Assembly (NCBI GenBank): GCA_044226975.1
Contig: JBGAFY010000001.1
Location: 1 to 38,107, forward strand
DNA from: Rhabdochlamydiaceae bacterium
GTDB lineage: Bacteria; Chlamydiota; Chlamydiia; Chlamydiales; Rhabdochlamydiaceae
Length of the DNA stretch: 38,107 bases
Direction of reading: 5' to 3'
Part shown: positions 9,001-27,476 of the stretch, in pieces
Layout: each line of letters starts with the position of its first letter
Position numbering within the stretch: the first letter of the stretch is position 1
Made by a program: the position numbers and the translations under genes
The notes under the pieces: generated by a model
What the model was told of the DNA's origin: nothing
Database searches by the model: none
The model's input: the letters and a program-made list of their open reading frames with translations, nothing else

Positions 9001-9109
9001 GTTCAAATATCTAAATTGCGAAAATTTGGTCGTTTTTTTTTCCTGCTCATGACAAAATCCAAAGAGACAAGTCTATTTCTCTTCCCATTGTCGCTTTGGA
9101 GGTATTTCT

Positions 9110-11888: not shown

Positions 11889-12701
11889 ATGCAAGAAGAA
11901 CGCAGACGGTCCAGTATCGGGATTTTCGATTCGGGGTTTGGCGGACTGACCGTCATGAACGCTATCCGGCATGTCCTTCCCCATGAAAATATTATTTACT
12001 TCGGCGACACTGCTAGGCTTCCCTATGGCAACAAAAGCGCTGAGACCATTGTCCGTTATTCAATTGAGAATGCAACTTTCTTAATGGATCAAGGGATAAA
12101 AATTCTCGTCATCGCTTGTAATACTGCCTGTTCATACGCAATTGAGCAGCTTGAGAGTCTCTTCGATATCCCTGTTATCGGCATCATAGCCCCCGCAGTC
12201 GAACAAGTGACAAAACTGACAAAAGGACATGTAGCGATACTTGGCACACGTGCTACCATCGCCTCAGGCGTCTATCAAAAGCATTTTTCCCACAACATAC
12301 CAGGCGCACACCTCACTGCAATCTCTTGCCCGCTCTTTGTCCCTTTGGTTGAAGAAGGCTATATCGAACATCCTATGACTGAAATTGTCGCACAAGAATA
12401 TTTGCGCCCTCTAAAGCTAAAACATAAAGAAGTCGACACTGTGCTCCTTGCATGCACTCATTACCCTTTCCTAAAAGACATTATCCAAAAAGAATTAGGC
12501 GAAGGTGTGACGCTTATAGATCCTGCTTTTAGTTGCGCAGACCATATCAAAACGGTTTTGCAACAAAAAGGGATGGTCAATGATCAAAATGAGCTGCCCC
12601 ACTACCAATTTTATGTTTCAGATGACCCTGAAAAATTCCGTTTACTTGGGAAAACTTTTTTAAACTATCCAATTGAACACGTCTTTGCTCGACCTATCTA
12701 A
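11889..12701 (+). CDS. murI: glutamate racemase
   Basis: 270 aa. IGIFDSGFGGLTV, the two catalytic Cys contexts (VIACNTAC and LLACTHYP), and GDTARLPYG. Confidence 0.9.
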   Translation: MQEERRRSSIGIFDSGFGGLTVMNAIRHVLPHENIIYFGDTARLPYGNKSAETIVRYSIENATFLMDQGIKILVIACNTACSYAIEQLESLFDIPVIGIIAPAVEQVTKLTKGHVAILGTRATIASGVYQKHFSHNIPGAHLTAISCPLFVPLVEEGYIEHPMTEIVAQEYLRPLKLKHKEVDTVLLACTHYPFLKDIIQKELGEGVTLIDPAFSCADHIKTVLQQKGMVNDQNELPHYQFYVSDDPEKFRLLGKTFLNYPIEHVFARPI

Positions 12702-12794
12702 GAGACTGTTAACGGATTCAGATTCTGTCGATTTTTTAAACTTTCTGAGCAAATTTTCAAAAAAGCGACGAATCCTGAATCCGTTAACAGTCTC
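12702..12794. mobile_element. 93-bp MITE-like hairpin element (type A, short form), copy 1
   Basis: GAGACTGTTAACGGATTCAGATTCTGTCG... pairs with ...CGACGAATCCTGAATCCGTTAACAGTCTC. The first 20 nt of the arms are perfect. Flanked by TAA (12699-12701, the murI stop) and TAA (12795-12797). Same termini as at 29345 and 38041. Confidence 0.7.
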
Positions 12795-13192
12795 TAAGAC
12801 TCTTTAAATAGAATTTATTCGAAACTCAGCCGTTATAAAGAGTTAAAGCAAAGATGAGCAAGAAGCGAAGACACAAAGATTTTAATAAATCATTTTTCTC
12901 CGCGTCTTTGAGTCCTGGCGCCTTTGCATTGATATGCGAGATTGAGCACATTATGACTGATATTAGTCGCATGTTTGACACACGAGCATACTCAATTTTT
13001 TAGTTTCGAAAGAAATCTATTATTAAATTTTTAATCGCATCCTTTTTTTTTCAGCTATACTCGAGTTTAGCCCCAGCTTGCTATGACTAAAAAATAGTAG
13101 TCAATATTATATTATTTTCAATTTTTTTAAATAACCTTATTTCTATATAAGAAGTTTCGTAATTAACATTTAATTAACTGGCAAATAATCAT

Positions 13193-13407: not shown

Positions 13408-14124
13408 ATGAGCCAAAAAAAACGGATCTTACTCATCGAAGACGAAGAAGATATTGCTGCTTTGATCAAGCTTCAAGCAGAGATCTCTGGCTATAAGATG
13501 CATGTCGAAGTCGATGGCATCAACGGATATCGTGCTATCGAAAGAGAAAAGCCTGATTTGGTCATTCTCGACGTGATGTTACCTGGACAAAATGGATTTG
13601 ATGTCTGCCGTAAAATGAAAAGCAGTCCAGAATTAAAAAACATCCCTGTCATTATTTTATCTGCGAAAGGGGAAGAGTTAGACATCGTGCTCGGATTGGA
13701 ACTTGGCGCTGATGATTACGTTTCAAAACCTTTTTCACCCAAAATTTTATTCTCGCGCATCAAAGCCGTCCTCCGCAGGGGCAAAGACACTGAAAAGGCT
13801 CCCCGAGTTCTGATCTTTGGTGAATTTACTCTTGAAGTTGACCGTTATTTACTCCGTAAAGGGGATAAAATTATCGCGACTCCTCTATCTGAGTTCGGCA
13901 TCTTGCGCCGTCTCATCTCAAACCGCGGCAAGGTTTTAACACGCAACCAACTGCTTGTTGATGTCCATAACGACGATGCGTTTATCGTAGTCCGCAACAT
14001 CGACGTCGATATTGCTTCTTTGCGCAAAAAACTAGGGCCAAATTTTGATTGGATTGAAACAGTGCGTGGCGTTGGATATCGCTTCCGAGAAGAATCCATT
14101 CCGATGGTGCTCGTTAAGAAGTAG
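13408..14124 (+). CDS. OmpR/PhoB-family response regulator (no adjacent sensor kinase)
   Basis: Receiver residues are present (EDEED, LVILDVMLPG, ILSAKG, YVSKPF). The C-terminal winged helix ends in VRGVGYRF. The track ORF starts at TTG 13396 and the first ATG is at 13408. Confidence 0.85.
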   Translation: MSQKKRILLIEDEEDIAALIKLQAEISGYKMHVEVDGINGYRAIEREKPDLVILDVMLPGQNGFDVCRKMKSSPELKNIPVIILSAKGEELDIVLGLELGADDYVSKPFSPKILFSRIKAVLRRGKDTEKAPRVLIFGEFTLEVDRYLLRKGDKIIATPLSEFGILRRLISNRGKVLTRNQLLVDVHNDDAFIVVRNIDVDIASLRKKLGPNFDWIETVRGVGYRFREESIPMVLVKK

Positions 14125-15471
14125 TCCGCGATAGTACAGATTGCACGCTCTTGGGATCTAATTGGACAAAAGCCTTGGAATGCTTGCTGTAAAGAACTTG
14201 TCCTTGTTTTTTCCCTCTTCTTAAATGTTTTCTTAGAGCCGAAATAACCTCGGCTTGGCCTCTTTCTTTTGCCTGGCTAAAAAACACTGCCAATTGGCGT
14301 GCTTCATTTAATGTTTGTTCATCGATTGCTTGCTCTTTTCTCCCGCGAACAATCACATGAGCGCCTCCACAATCTGCTGCATGCAACCATAGATCATTAC
14401 CTCGGGCAAACTGAAAGGTTAGCTCTGAGTTCTCTTTTGCATTGTGACCTACGAATATCGATAGACCAGCAATTGATCTATAGTGACGAAAAGGAACTTC
14501 TTTGCGGTTTGCAAAAAGAACTTTAGTTTTTTTAGGGAACAGCTCCGCTTCAAATGCCTGCAGTTCTTCAAGTGTTGCAATGCTTTGGGCCTGGAGTAAT
14601 AGTCCTTGCCAAATCTCGCGTTCCTCCTGTGATTTTTCCAACAATTGCGCGCAGCTCTTAAAGCTTTCGTCTTTAATTTTTTTGCAGCACGGAACTTCGC
14701 TTGTGTATTTTCAGAAGGAGATTTTAAAGGATCTAAAATCAGAGTGATCAACTTACCGCCTTCCTCCCAATCCTCAATTTCGATTGAACTTATCCCTTTC
14801 TTCACTTGAAACAAATTGGATTGAAGGAGTTTTCCTTCATGCTCCAACTGCTTCCACCCTTCTCCTTTTGAAAGTTCTCCTTGATAAATGCGGCAGAGTT
14901 TCTGCAGCTTTGAAAGCTTCTTCGAGACATTTATCTGCAAATGTCTTTTAGCCTGTTTAAATGAATCTTCCTGTTCTAAATAAGCAAAGGCATTTTCAAC
15001 CCAAACGCTTCGACAGCAAAGAGGAAATTGTGTAGGTTCTTTTACTGAAGGAGGACGTGATTTTTCTTCCTTGCGATATGTCAAGAGCACGAGGCCCTTA
15101 TCGGGAAAGACCCGCAATTGGTTAGGATGCTTTGAGAACAGCTCGAATTGCAAAAAAAGAGCTTTTTTATCCTGAGAAAAATCCATTTTAATGACTCTGT
15201 CATTGGATACAGTGTAGATTTTTTCTAATCGCGCATCCTTTAAGACATTTTCCAATGCCTGTGTAAAATGAGTCAAACTACCATGAAATTTCTTTTTAAG
15301 AAGGTGCATCCGTGCGTAAGGAGACCTGAGACAAATGAGCAACTGCTCCCCTTTTTCAAAATCTAAGATCCATTTTTCTTCAGAACTCTCTTTTACTGAG
15401 ATTAGTCGCAACCCTTGAAGACGGTCCTTGACCTCTTCGCAAAGAGAAGCGAGTTCAGAAAAAGATAACAT
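14114..15471 (-). pseudogene. NFACT-family protein (RqcH/FbpA-like, NFACT-N plus coiled coil plus NFACT-R/DUF814), frame broken once
   Basis: ORF 14449-15471 carries the N-terminal NFACT-N-like region. ORF 14114-14644 carries DLWLHAADCGGAHVIVRG (the DUF814 motif). The frames join if the 7-nt run at 14677-14683 (A7 on the coding strand) is read as A8: ...FRAAKKIKDESFKSCAQLLEKSQEEREIW... Confidence 0.7.
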
Positions 15472-15500: not shown

Positions 15501-16797
15501 ATGGACACAAAACCCAATCATACCCACATAGCAAAAAAAGATTTAGCCCAACCCTTATTTCCAGTTTATCTGACCTTCTTCTTAGATAGCTTCGGAATTG
15601 GGATGATTTATCCTTTGTTTACACCTCTGCTTCTTTTTCCTGAATATCACATCCTCTCCACAAGCATTTCTATATTGAGAAAAACCATTCTCTTAGGGCT
15701 TTTGATTTCCGCCTTTCCTTTCGCACAGTTTTTTGGTGCCCCATTGATAGGTGCAATATCAGATAGATTAGGACGCAAAAAATGTTTCCTTATCACCGTG
15801 TCCGCAACAGGCATCGGTTATTTTATTACGGGATTAGGCATTATTTTAGGTTTACTCCCCCTCATGTTCATTGGAAGGCTGTGGACGGGATTTTTTGCAG
15901 GGAACTTGACCCTTATGTCTAGCTACAATTGCTGACTTACGCCATGACAAGGAGTCGCGCGCCTCAACTTTTGGAATGATGGCAGGGTTTGGAGGTATCG
16001 GGTTTATTGCCTCAATTCTCCTAGGGAGCATCTTTTCCTATGATAAAACTTCAACTCTACTACATCCCAGTATGGCGTTTTGGTTGATGACCGTGTTCTC
16101 GGCTGTAAATCTAATATGCATTATCCGTTTTTTCCACGAGAGCCATTCAACAACACTCAAAGAAAGGACACATGTATTTAAAGGGCTAAAGCAATTCTCT
16201 TTAGCTTTTTCACATAAACCCGGCCGTATCTTATATAGCATTTATTTCTTCTTCAGCCTGGGATGGGTATGCATGGCCCAACTGACTCCTACGTATGTGT
16301 ATGAACATTTCAAGGCCACTCAAAAGACCGTGGTCTACGTTTTATTGATTATGGGTGGAATGTGGGCATTGAGTAATTTAGTCTTACAGAGATTCCTCGT
16401 ACATAAGTTCAAAATAAGCTGGATCTTATGTTTTGCTCTTCTCTGTTTAAGTATTTTGGTATCTATTATCTCAGTTGGTCTCCCTTTTGGGGTATATGCA
16501 TTTCTCTATGCAGGATCGATTATCGCTGCAGCACTGAGTTGGACAAACTGTTTGTCATTGGTCTCTTTGAAGGCAGATTTGGAAATTCAAGGAAGCATCT
16601 TAGGAATTAATCAAGCTGTCGGGACCGTCTCAGCTATATTTGGACCATTGATTGGAGGCGTTATCGCAGGCATTGACAATCAATTCGTATACCTCTTTGC
16701 GGCTTTAATGCAACTAATAGCGTTCTTAATATTGGTATTAAACCACAAATCCATCCTTCCTCCGCTTGCTTGGAAAAAACAACAAGAGCAAACTTAG
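15501..16797 (+). pseudogene. MFS transporter (drug/H+ antiporter-like), frame broken once
   Basis: The N-terminal ORF has MFS motif A (GAISDRLGRKK). The second frame is open from 15910 and reads LCLATIADLRHDKESRASTFGMMAGFGGIGFI, continuing to 16797. A single extra base in 15910-15935 explains the split. Confidence 0.7.
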
Positions 16798-24787: not shown

Positions 24788-27403
24788 CTAGACTTTCTTT
24801 CCCTTATTGAAACGCACTTCAGTCACATTTCCTTCTGGAGTAAAGTTCTTCTTTATCCCATCGATCTGGTCTTCGACGAAGACTTGGAAACAACGCGGCT
24901 TGCCATCATCATAGTACTTATTGAGCTTACCGTGACGCATCCCATCTTTATATTCGCCTTCAAACACCAGGGCACCGCCCTCATTAAATTCTTGGGCTTT
25001 ACCATGGAGCTTCCCATTTACGTAGGGATAAACGCTTGCAAGCGAACCTTCTTCATGATAGGTGCGCTCTTCTCCGTCTTTCTCATCCTGGCGGAAAGAA
25101 ACTTCCTTAAATATTTTTCCATTTGGGAAGTATTGGACAGCAACGCCCTCTTTTTTGTCTTCATGAAATGGGACTCGCATATAGATACGGCCTTTAGCAT
25201 CATAAACTTCTGCAATCCCTTCTTTTTTTCCTTGAGAATATAACGTCTTGGAAACAAGAACTCCCATCATGTTAAATTCTTTTGCTTCCCCTTCAGCTTT
25301 GTCGTTTTTAAAAGGTACCTCTAGCGCCAAGACTTTTCCAGCATCTGCTCTCTCGGGATAGAAGATATGATGAAGGCCTTCTTTGACATTGTTCTTATAT
25401 TGGAAAACGATCTCTTTGCCCTCAGGAGACCTCTCAAAAAACCGACCGTCGAGCTTTCCATCTTTATAAAAGGCTTCTTCAACAAGAATGCCCTCATTGT
25501 TCCACATTGCCTTACGTCCATCCAGGTCGCCATTTTTGTATTGGGCCAAGGATTGCAACGTCCCGTTTGGATAATATGTCTTTTGCTCTCCATCAAGCTG
25601 AGCATTGGAGTTATAATGAAAGCGATGTGCAATTTGAGGAGCAGAAACACCTACAAGGACATCTTTAGAAAAATATTCAACTTGCTCGCCCACTGGCTTT
25701 CCTTTATGGAAATTCTTTATGACATGAATTGCGCCATCTGAAAACCATCCTTTGACTTCGCCATCAAGCAGATCATTTTCATAATGAGCTGTTCCTTTAT
25801 GCTGGCCATTTGCATGGTACTCGTCAAGCCGCCCGTATTTCTTTCCTGATTTGAGCTCTACGCGTTCTTTTATATGATCTTTGCCATACCAAGTAGTAAA
25901 GATTCCATTTGGCTCGCCATCTACAAAAGAGCCTTCTCCAATCAAATCGCCTTTATCATTCCATTCGCGATGCAGGCCTTGTTTTTTTCCTGCAACAAAG
26001 GCGCCCTCAGCTTGTTTTGTCCCATTTGCATGCCAATAATGGATTGTTCCCTCGAGATTTCCATGGACGTAATTTTCTTCAAATTTTACTTTCCCATCTG
26101 CAAACCATTCTTTGCATAATCCATGCTTCTCATCCGCTACATGCTCTAAGCGAAGATAGGGAGCACCGTCCTCATAAAACTCTTCATGGACTCCTTGTTT
26201 TTTCCCGTGGTCATAAAAAGTATGAACCTTCAATTTTCCATTAGCGTGATATTCTTTCTGTTCTCCAGTCAGCTCGCCATTTTCATAGTGGTAGTCTGTT
26301 AGCAATTGCCCATCATTGTTCCACGTTCTAATTTGTCCATGAGGCTTATTGTCTACTAAGAAAAATTCTGAGAGGATTTGACCTTTTTCATCCCATTCGC
26401 GGATTGGCTCTTTTAAATTCCCTTTTTCGTCATAAAGGGCAAGATATGCCTGTTTTCCATTTGGATGGTTTCTCCAATAAATCCCATAACATTTCCCTTC
26501 TTTGAATTCTCCTTCACCAAGCAATTTCCCATCTTCAGCATAGAACTGTTCTTTTCCTTGCTTCAGCCCATCTTTATATTGGGCTTTATAGCTCTGTTTG
26601 CCATTTGCGTGATAACGCATATGTACACCAGATGGCTTTCCATGGATGAAGTCTTGGACCTCTTGTATTTCGCGATTCTCGTAGTAGACTGTTGCTGCAG
26701 GGTTTTTGCCATCAGAATGCAAAACTCCATTGAGATAACGTCTAGAGGCTTTCAATACACCGCTTGGGTACCATTCTAAAGCCGTTCCATGAGGCAAGCC
26801 TTTTTCAAATGGAGTTAAAGATCCGCGGATTTCTTTTGGGTAATATTTGATGCAGTCGCCTTGCAATGCCCCATTTTCAAACATCCCTTCTTCTAATTTT
26901 TCCCCATTTTCATAAAATGAGACAGCAGGTCCATGTTGCAAGCCATTTACAAACTCAGCTTTTGATTTTACCTGGCCATTAGGATGGTATAAATAAGTAT
27001 GCCCATGGAGGCCTCCCTCTTTGAAATAGGCAATGCTCTCAGGCGTTCCAGACTGGTAGAAGACAACGCTTGCACCATGCGGCACATATTCACTGTTCCA
27101 CTGCTCGACAATCTTAGATCCGGCAGGAGCTTTTATTAGATCTGTTTCACTACGGATTGCACCATTGGAAAAGAAATGGACTTCTTTGACAGCAACTTCA
27201 TCGGGGTCTCCCGCATGCTCAAAAAATAAGATCTTTTCAGGCTGGCCATTATCATAACTGGCGAGAATTTTAGGACGCCATTGTGGCTCCCTTGCTTTTA
27301 GGCCATAAGCACTCGATGGAACTTGAGAGACTGCAGCGTTTGAAGCTTGCGGAGCAGCTAAAGTAAAACAAACTAAGGTAATAGCAAAAGGTAACCAACG
27401 CAT
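24788..27403 (-). CDS. secreted MORN-variant (YwqK-like) repeat protein, about 871 aa
   Basis: ATG at 27403 gives the signal peptide MRWLPFAITLVCFTLAAPQASNA (the track ORF starts at TTG 27466). The rest is more than 30 tandem units of about 23 aa, of the form G..xG....YY.NG....E..Y..G..HG. Confidence 0.85.
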   Translation of the reverse strand: MRWLPFAITLVCFTLAAPQASNAAVSQVPSSAYGLKAREPQWRPKILASYDNGQPEKILFFEHAGDPDEVAVKEVHFFSNGAIRSETDLIKAPAGSKIVEQWNSEYVPHGASVVFYQSGTPESIAYFKEGGLHGHTYLYHPNGQVKSKAEFVNGLQHGPAVSFYENGEKLEEGMFENGALQGDCIKYYPKEIRGSLTPFEKGLPHGTALEWYPSGVLKASRRYLNGVLHSDGKNPAATVYYENREIQEVQDFIHGKPSGVHMRYHANGKQSYKAQYKDGLKQGKEQFYAEDGKLLGEGEFKEGKCYGIYWRNHPNGKQAYLALYDEKGNLKEPIREWDEKGQILSEFFLVDNKPHGQIRTWNNDGQLLTDYHYENGELTGEQKEYHANGKLKVHTFYDHGKKQGVHEEFYEDGAPYLRLEHVADEKHGLCKEWFADGKVKFEENYVHGNLEGTIHYWHANGTKQAEGAFVAGKKQGLHREWNDKGDLIGEGSFVDGEPNGIFTTWYGKDHIKERVELKSGKKYGRLDEYHANGQHKGTAHYENDLLDGEVKGWFSDGAIHVIKNFHKGKPVGEQVEYFSKDVLVGVSAPQIAHRFHYNSNAQLDGEQKTYYPNGTLQSLAQYKNGDLDGRKAMWNNEGILVEEAFYKDGKLDGRFFERSPEGKEIVFQYKNNVKEGLHHIFYPERADAGKVLALEVPFKNDKAEGEAKEFNMMGVLVSKTLYSQGKKEGIAEVYDAKGRIYMRVPFHEDKKEGVAVQYFPNGKIFKEVSFRQDEKDGEERTYHEEGSLASVYPYVNGKLHGKAQEFNEGGALVFEGEYKDGMRHGKLNKYYDDGKPRCFQVFVEDQIDGIKKNFTPEGNVTEVRFNKGKKV

Positions 27404-27476
27404 AATAACTCTCTTATTGTAGGAAACATTACGACCTACGATAAGCCATCTATCCCTAAGAAACAAGAGTGGATCT

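Follow-up and report, generated by a model that had tools for sequence, protein, structure and literature searches.

Tourist-type MITEs such as mPing (PIF/Harbinger) are small, non-autonomous elements that are associated with an IS5-related DDE transposase, duplicate a TWA target (TAA or TTA), and prefer genic neighborhoods. In Neisseria, the Correia elements (NEMIS) form palindromic MITEs of ~100 to 160 bp with many copies near genes, size variants that arise by internal deletion, and co-transcription with the neighboring genes; they duplicate TA, and promoter, IHF-site, and RNase III effects have been reported for them. The IS5 family itself is recognized in ISfinder by a short duplication at a TA-centered palindromic target and by GAG/GGC-type ends. 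For intracellular bacteria, MITECca01 has been described from the Cardinium endosymbiont of Oedothorax gibbosus, an IS982-derived element of ~240 bp that was reported to be limited to one strain, and its authors stated in 2022 that, to their knowledge, such a MITE had previously been unreported for endosymbionts (PMC9769881). In the literature searched, we found no description of a MITE for Chlamydiae and nothing specific on the IS1031 and IS427 types.

Here, we analyzed a 93-bp hairpin element (copy 1) at the end of the glutamate racemase gene murI in a stretch of 38,107 nucleotides from a Rhabdochlamydiaceae bacterium (GenBank assembly GCA_044226975.1, contig JBGAFY010000001.1), referred to as the window. 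Copy 1 is very probably a MITE that arose by internal deletion from a ~170-bp foldback element with many copies in one group of environmental Chlamydiales, was mobilized in trans by an IS5-family transposase, and duplicated TAA at its target. The family apparently represents a miniature transposon of environmental chlamydiae that has not been described before. Mechanistically, it comes closest to the Tourist elements, including mPing, and among bacterial elements it most resembles the Correia elements. The former, however, are eukaryotic and without sequence relationship to the chlamydial element, which is an almost wholly perfect foldback instead of having just short TIRs, and the latter differ from this TWA element in their TA duplication and in their TIRs. 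MITECca01 (PMC9769881) is similar in that it derives from an IS, multiplied within an intracellular bacterium, and was recognized by TIRs in common with its parental IS, but it has an IS982 parent and was reported from one strain only, which belongs to another phylum, whereas the chlamydial family is found in several MAGs and many metagenomes.

The gene content of the window is that of a member of the environmental Chlamydiales, as judged from Pfam scans of its ORFs (Table 1), and the best named relatives of its secretin belong to Rhabdochlamydiaceae, Chlamydiales, and Simkania (61 to 63% identity). The murI region shows 92 to 93% DNA identity to contig JBGAFT010000001.1 of MAG_MBR_H125.77 (locus L056). 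Eukaryote-like domains, which are typical of amoeba-associated chlamydiae, occur in the F-box-like protein (7383-7997) and in the MORN-repeat protein of 892 amino acids (24788-27466). The first-pass annotation of this DNA had described the element as non-autonomous, and this was confirmed: Pfam scans revealed no transposase among 38 window ORFs, to which most of the long ones belong, and the copies themselves are without coding capacity and crossed only by short chance ORFs. Furthermore, Rfam and tRNA scans identified no known RNA gene; Rfam 15 gave 0 matches in the window at gathering score, and on the element only sub-threshold, generic hairpin (miRNA precursor) matches.

Table 1. Coordinates of the element copies and the surrounding features in the window
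Feature	Position	Strand	Remark
sdhA, tatD, tolQ/R-tolB-pal, LysM protein, murI, response regulator			Pfam scans
F-box-like protein, MORN-repeat protein, gspD-E-F-pseudopilin cluster			Pfam scans
Type B palindromic element, 168 bp	8836..9003	.	Interior 79% identical to Type A; termini GAACCTATCTCACTAAAA
murI-like glutamate racemase gene	11889..12701	+	ORF list; Pfam PF01177 Asp_Glu_race, 75 bits, E 8e-21
murI TAA stop, left copy of the target-site duplication	12699-12701	+	Sequence
MITE copy 1, 93 bp, internal-deletion form of the 170-bp family	12702..12794	.	Outer helix kept, inner hairpin missing
Left TIR of copy 1, GAGACTGTTAACGGATTCAG	12702..12721	+	Sequence
Right TIR of copy 1, exact reverse complement of the left TIR	12775..12794	-	Sequence
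Right-hand TAA of the 3-bp target-site duplication	12795..12797	+	Sequence
MITE copy 2, 169 bp, full-length	29345..29513	.	On the gspF TAA stop (minus strand), separating gspF from the first pseudopilin gene
MITE copy 3, partial, B-end first	38043..38107	.	One terminus mismatch; element runs past the window end

Copy 1 reads GAGACTGTTAACGGATTCAG ... CTGAATCCGTTAACAGTCTC and directly abuts the TAA of murI, which is found again at its far end. The near-perfect hairpin that had been noticed at this stop codon was supported by the exact 20-nt inverted termini and by the predicted RNA fold of positions 12690 to 12810 (-48.1 kcal/mol, z = -9.5), a stability that 0 of 200 shuffles reached. The 20-mer terminus has five matches in the window at one mismatch or less, compared with 0 in 100 shuffles, and the claim of at least three copies in 38 kb held, since the 93-bp copy, the 169-bp copy (copy 2), and a copy at the window end (copy 3) were all recovered. 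Copy 2 likewise has exact 20-nt TIRs and folds at -92.9 kcal/mol (z = -14.6). It is flanked by TTA at positions 29342 to 29344 and 29515 to 29517, with an extra C at 29514, and had been assigned a 4-bp CTTA duplication. This assignment was dropped upon comparison with the related locus L187, where the site reads CCTAA directly followed by GAGACTG and the run just upstream is one T shorter. Since L187 is without the extra base, the duplication at copy 2 is TTA, and the window has a 1-nt indel there. For copy 3, the presence of the element was confirmed, and the start at 38041 after TTAA, as given before, proved ambiguous: the copy begins either at 38041, with GAGA-TA-CTG behind a TAA flank, or at 38043, with GATACTG behind an AGA flank. 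In locus L032, a terminus of the GATACTG form was found as well, and its flank is TTA.

To follow the element beyond the window, the genome-wide census proposed in the first-pass annotation was carried out by scanning one genome per species with the 17-mer ACTGTTAACGGATTCAG, which yielded 66 stretches. About 24 of them are lone matches in unrelated taxa, with mismatches at the three remaining bases of the terminus and without a second, paired terminus; by our own arithmetic, roughly 70 chance matches are expected for a 17-mer in 596 Gb. At least 28 sites were found in a single related MAG of ~2 Mb (JBGAFT01), and the remaining matches lie in a few MAGs labeled Rhabdochlamydiaceae, Chlamydiales, "Verrucomicrobiae," or "bacterium." In metagenomes, scanning with GAGACTGTTAACGGATT gave at least 120 stretches. 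Among the matches listed, the sizes of the family range from 50 to 173 bp with a mode of 170 bp, and short forms of 50 to 144 bp are present besides the 170-bp form. In the 93-bp form, the junction (...GCAAATTTTC joined to AAAAAAGCG) lies between two short direct repeats of the 170-bp form, AATTTTC and AATTCTC. Copy 1, the copy in L056, and an unrelated metagenome copy (L144) have this junction in common, so that the 93-bp form either spreads as a subfamily or has arisen repeatedly by deletion. Beside the 24 single-ended copies in the genome loci sampled, no transposase was found; these copies are MITEs that are either truncated or split by other DNA.

The repeated TAA at copy 1 had been taken for a target-site duplication, and the flanks of the other family members agree with this. 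A perfect 3-bp repeat surrounds 15 of the 18 complete genome copies (TTA in 8, TAA in 6, and TGA in 1) and, among the matches listed, 38 of 44 distinct complete metagenome copies (TAA in 24, TTA in 13, and AAA in 1). Pooling of both sets gave duplications at 53 of 62 complete copies among the matches listed (TAA, 30; TTA, 21; TGA, 1; AAA, 1), i.e., TWA in 51. The target logo built from the 53 reconstructed sites is a palindromic Y-TWA-R, with C at position -1 and G at position +1 in about half of the sites. The 3-bp duplication at Y-TWA-R is a real transposition footprint.

We also compared sites with and without the element in close relatives. The murI end of L056 reads ...CCATCTAA, then GGTTCTTTA..., without an element at the stop codon; the call of an empty site (CCATCTAAGGTTCTTTA) is based on the TAA and ~10 conserved bases. 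After removal of the element and one TAA, the window reads ...CTATCTAAGACTCTTTA.... Since the murI site is empty in this 92%-identical relative, the comparison, which the first-pass annotation had named as a test that could refute it, favors insertion over a conserved structural repeat. L056 has a 93-bp copy of its own ~250 bp downstream of the murI stop, which is 91.6% identical and has the same junction and TTA flanks; the window has no element there. The ~200 to 220 bp on the 3' side of the murI MITE (window 12798-13016) are unalignable to L056, and the flanking genes align gap-free. An inversion of this spacer as the cause of the different position of the L056 copy found no support, as direct and reverse-complement alignments scored equally and both were poor.

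At the site of copy 2, the gspF TAA of L187 (GspD 98% identical, DNA 92%) is immediately followed by the element, inside which the contig stops. In L188 (80%) and L189 (69%), the site is empty, and gspF ends with TAG, followed by 7 to 17 bp and the ATG of the pseudopilin gene. A further copy of 84 bp lies downstream of an RF-1-domain gene in L187 and is missing from the window. The presence of the element changes on a time scale of ~8% DNA divergence. Tourist elements were reported to excise more precisely than Stowaway elements (PMC4561436), and precise excision of this kind would fit the clean empty sites of the chlamydial element.

With these data, a REP/BIME-like host palindrome that is conserved in place and spread by a RAYT-type enzyme or by recombination, rather than inserted, appears extremely unlikely. 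The chlamydial element is indeed a palindromic, intergenic, multi-copy sequence with strong conservation of pairing, as are the short intergenic palindromes of the REP/BIME type, and minimal forms of 34 to 53 bp exist. Nevertheless, REP/BIME sequences differ from a family that has duplications, IS-type TIRs, and presence/absence polymorphism. The 3-bp repeats at 53 of the 62 copies among the matches listed, the identity of the termini to those of a DDE-type IS (see below), and the filled and empty orthologous sites of close relatives all argue against this reading, which is largely refuted; moreover, a GTAG/CGTC head was not seen on inspection of the sequences, nor was a RAYT-like gene among the window ORFs scanned.

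A search for an IS with matching TIRs, as suggested at the outset, led to a candidate parent in locus L167. There, the single pair of inverted termini at that spacing among the matches listed encloses an IS of 877 bp (1321-2197) with two overlapping reading frames joined at a AAAAAAAG run (A7G slippery run). The conceptual, joined transposase of 269 amino acids matched the IS5-family model NF033580 with 227 bits (cut-off 110) over model positions 2 to 257 of 258, as well as Pfam DUF4096 (PF13340) and DDE_Tnp_1 (PF01609). Small IS5 elements of this model, with transposases of ~260 amino acids, are those that we take to be the IS427 and IS1031 groups of ISfinder, and the A7G two-frame organization presumably points to the IS427 type. 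The ends of the IS are GAGACTGTTAACGGATTC and GAGACTGTTAACGGATTT, and at both of them the IS and MITE termini are identical over 17 to 18 nt (17-bp terminus, GAGACTGTTAACGGATT). The family, which had not been recognized before, is now placed by these termini. Like the small IS5-family ISs of NF033580, the window element has GAG termini, a 3-bp TNA/TWA duplication, and a palindromic Y-TWA-R target; it differs in being non-coding and in having only the 17 to 18 terminal nt in common with the IS. Since the MITE and IS interiors show no similarity outside these nucleotides, the link between the two rests on the termini and the common target.

The complete copy in L167, the sole one among the matches listed, has imperfect flanks (TTG/TTA). 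In another metagenome, two long contigs terminate in identical IS ends, with flanks TTA and TAA. One of these contigs is chlamydial, as its NrdB shows 88 to 90% identity to its counterparts in MAGs of Chlamydiia, Chlamydiota, and Rhabdochlamydiaceae. A search of both IS-terminated contig stretches revealed no MITE copies, and no IS of the L167 type was found in ~220 kb of JBGAFT01 sampled. The closest named transposase is that of Neochlamydia sp. S13 (56% identity), which belongs to an IS of 857 bp with GAGACATTCTCTGAATTA termini (GAGAC...), the same slippery run and overall architecture, and a TAA/TAA duplication. In a further relative, with an 84% identical transposase, the end reads TTA followed by GAGACTTTAACGGAAA. 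Another candidate for the parent, a 1134-bp repeat of L029 and L037, was rejected, since it is an unrelated, IS903-like IS5-family IS (NF033579) with GGCTTTGTTGCGTAA termini. Its copies (L029 1290-2422 and L037 2990-4123; JBGAFT010000003.1) are 99% identical and encode a transposase of 318 amino acids (NF033579 at 287 bits), and each of them sits inside a MITE copy of the family studied here (Type A).

Taken together, the element is small and non-coding and has TIRs, a fixed-length duplication, dispersed polymorphic copies, and termini in common with an autonomous IS, all of which characterize MITEs; the match of the parent transposase to IS5 models, the 3-bp duplication at Y-TWA-R, and the GAGAC... 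ends characterize IS5 derivatives. From the identical termini and the target, we infer that the window element is a non-autonomous partner of this IS5-family lineage and was mobilized by its enzyme. The element encodes nothing and was most likely moved in trans by the DDE transposase of the 877-bp IS; an IS of the L167 type, or a close relative, would supply the transposase, and movement would be of the cut-and-paste kind. The transposase would cut with a 3-nt stagger at Y-TWA-R, and repair would duplicate TWA. At copy 1, the target was the TAA stop of murI, and the left TAA still terminates murI, so that the insertion is harmless.

All three window copies had been noted next to gene ends, and insertion sites were analyzed across the family. 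Pre-insertion sequences were rebuilt for 42 copies with a perfect duplication and enough flank, and ORFs were defined, crudely, as stop-to-stop frames with a minimum of 100 codons, irrespective of the reading frame. The TAA stop of such a frame was the target in 8 of 42 insertions, and 5 more overlap a stop (13 of 42 overall). Outside long frames, 13 of 30 insertions (43%) use or overlap a stop, compared with 14% of control TAA/TTA sites outside long frames (binomial p = 1e-4), and 8 of 30 (27%) use a TAA stop, compared with 9% (p = 0.005). The pattern of placement at gene ends is real. In the simplest reading, the preferred target TAA doubles as a stop codon, which is restored by the duplication, and intragenic insertions are purged by selection. 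Since the stop is restored, stop-codon insertions would be neutral, survive, and become enriched; this is a transposon whose own duplication restores the codon that it hits.

The alignment of 42 full-length copies comprised 69 base pairs, with 96.3% of the cells paired. Two-sided changes were observed at 31 of the 69 pairs (264 cells). None of 500 shuffles reached any of five pairing measures, and pairing was 37 to 54% when partners were slid by 1 to 3 columns. The TIRs are conserved in all 42 copies; positions 1 to 17 are nearly invariant, as expected for a transposase-binding site, and covariation is seen from position 18 on. Single-sided G-U states are rare except at one pair, which fits complementarity that is kept at the DNA level. 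Such a strict interior palindrome is beyond the needs of a passive transposon relic, and candidates for its upkeep are selection on the hairpin, as DNA or as RNA, and arm-to-arm correction.

Copy 1 had also been proposed as the likely terminator of murI, and this proposal was not borne out. A consensus scan revealed no terminator-like site at copy 1 (12702-12794) or copy 2 (29345-29513), and no T-run is found behind the stem in either orientation; the sequence after the stem of copy 1 is TAAGACTCTTTAAATAG. Since the element is palindromic, both strands have the T-rich arm on the 5' side and the A-rich arm on the 3' side, the reverse of the order in a terminator. Copy 2 is internal to the gspD-E-F-pseudopilin operon and precedes the next start codon and its GAGGAAA by 15 bp. 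Judged by its sequence, the element is not a canonical intrinsic terminator, i.e., a G+C-rich stem-loop with a T/U run directly behind it. Effects on transcription, if any, would be a by-product, and a long, perfect hairpin in a transcript may cause polymerase pausing, block exonucleases, or attract RNase III.

We further considered whether the hairpin acts, or has been co-opted, as a transcription terminator or 3'-end stabilizer of murI, which we regard as improbable. The hairpin abuts the murI stop with a very stable stem (-48 kcal/mol), a simple scan places the next terminator-like site after murI not before 13351, and both the enrichment of insertions at or over stop codons and the compensatory changes in the stem would be in line with such a function. 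The enrichment, however, is accounted for by the TAA target together with purifying selection, and covariation with few G-U intermediates points to complementarity at the DNA level rather than the RNA level. In addition to the lack of a terminator-like call at copies 1 and 2, of a T-run behind the stem, and of the arm composition of a terminator, copy 2 is kept mid-operon in L187 with intact gspE and gspF, where a strong terminator would be costly, and the murI stop of the 92%-identical relative is without the element. The preferred reading of copy 1 is that of an inserted MITE.

Besides Type A, the window contains a palindromic element with a related interior and other termini (Type B; Table 1), which looks like a second MITE family with the same foldback module. 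The Type B termini GAACCTATCTCACTAAAA were found in about 12 other loci, including minimal forms of 34 bp and 44 bp, and 5 of 6 complete Type B copies have a 2-bp flanking repeat. A hybrid with one Type B and one Type A terminus, followed by TTA, lies directly upstream of an RF-1-domain gene in L187 (positions 1 to 113, orthologous to window ~36417). These findings suggest a modular foldback interior that was joined to termini of different kinds. Type B-like termini (GAACCTATCTCAC...) also adjoin Type A termini in L059 (1318-1340) and L084 (~1674), with only TAA or TCA between them, which suggests that one element inserted into the end of the other.

These observations bear on the possibility that the MITE was moved by a transposase other than that of the L167 type and that its interior is an independent module that takes its termini from various ISs. 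The short stretch of 17 to 18 nt in common between IS and MITE, the sibling family with the same interior, unrelated termini, and a 2-bp flanking repeat, the hybrid element, and the ~220 kb of JBGAFT01 in which the IS was unseen would all be compatible with it. On the other hand, the 17-nt match to the IS is exact at both ends, the IS ends are located in the same TTA/TAA targets, and the chlamydial relative duplicates TAA. We consider this possibility quite improbable; moreover, it concerns the origin of the interior and leaves an IS5-type enzyme acting on Type A termini untouched. Returning to a MITE mobilized by the IS5-family transposase, the interior foldback may in addition be a selected module that, together with landing on TAA stops, would make the element a mobile supplier of 3'-end hairpins (as mRNA stabilizer, RNase III site, or DNA cruciform), or it may be an arm-correcting palindrome. 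Its largely intact pairing with two-sided changes, and its occurrence in two families that differ in termini and duplication length as well as in at least one hybrid, would be in line with a selected module, but we regard this extension as speculative and unlikely.

The data add a well-defined MITE family with a candidate parent IS, a target rule, and size variants to the environmental Chlamydiota. In practical terms, the elements break short-read contigs, as seen for L187, which ends inside one, produce spurious ORF extensions, and serve as presence/absence markers between ~92%-identical strains. The sole feature beyond routine is the covarying interior that is common to two families with different termini.

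Several genes of the window are split by frameshifts, namely, the first pseudopilin gene, gspF, and gspE (28945-32290), the NFACT gene (14114-15471), and the MFS gene (15501-16797), all of which are intact in the relatives L187, L189, and L056. Of the indels between the window and L187, 37 of 37 fall into gspE-gspF and 0 into gspD, with uniform substitution levels; the split genes are either real pseudogenes or local assembly errors. Finally, at positions 36420 to 36583 of the window, the arms of a perfect inverted repeat of 33 bp enclose 98 bp (DNA fold of -56 kcal/mol, z = -12). This palindrome begins exactly where the homology to L187 ends, is unrelated in sequence to Types A and B, and represents a third kind of palindromic insertion.
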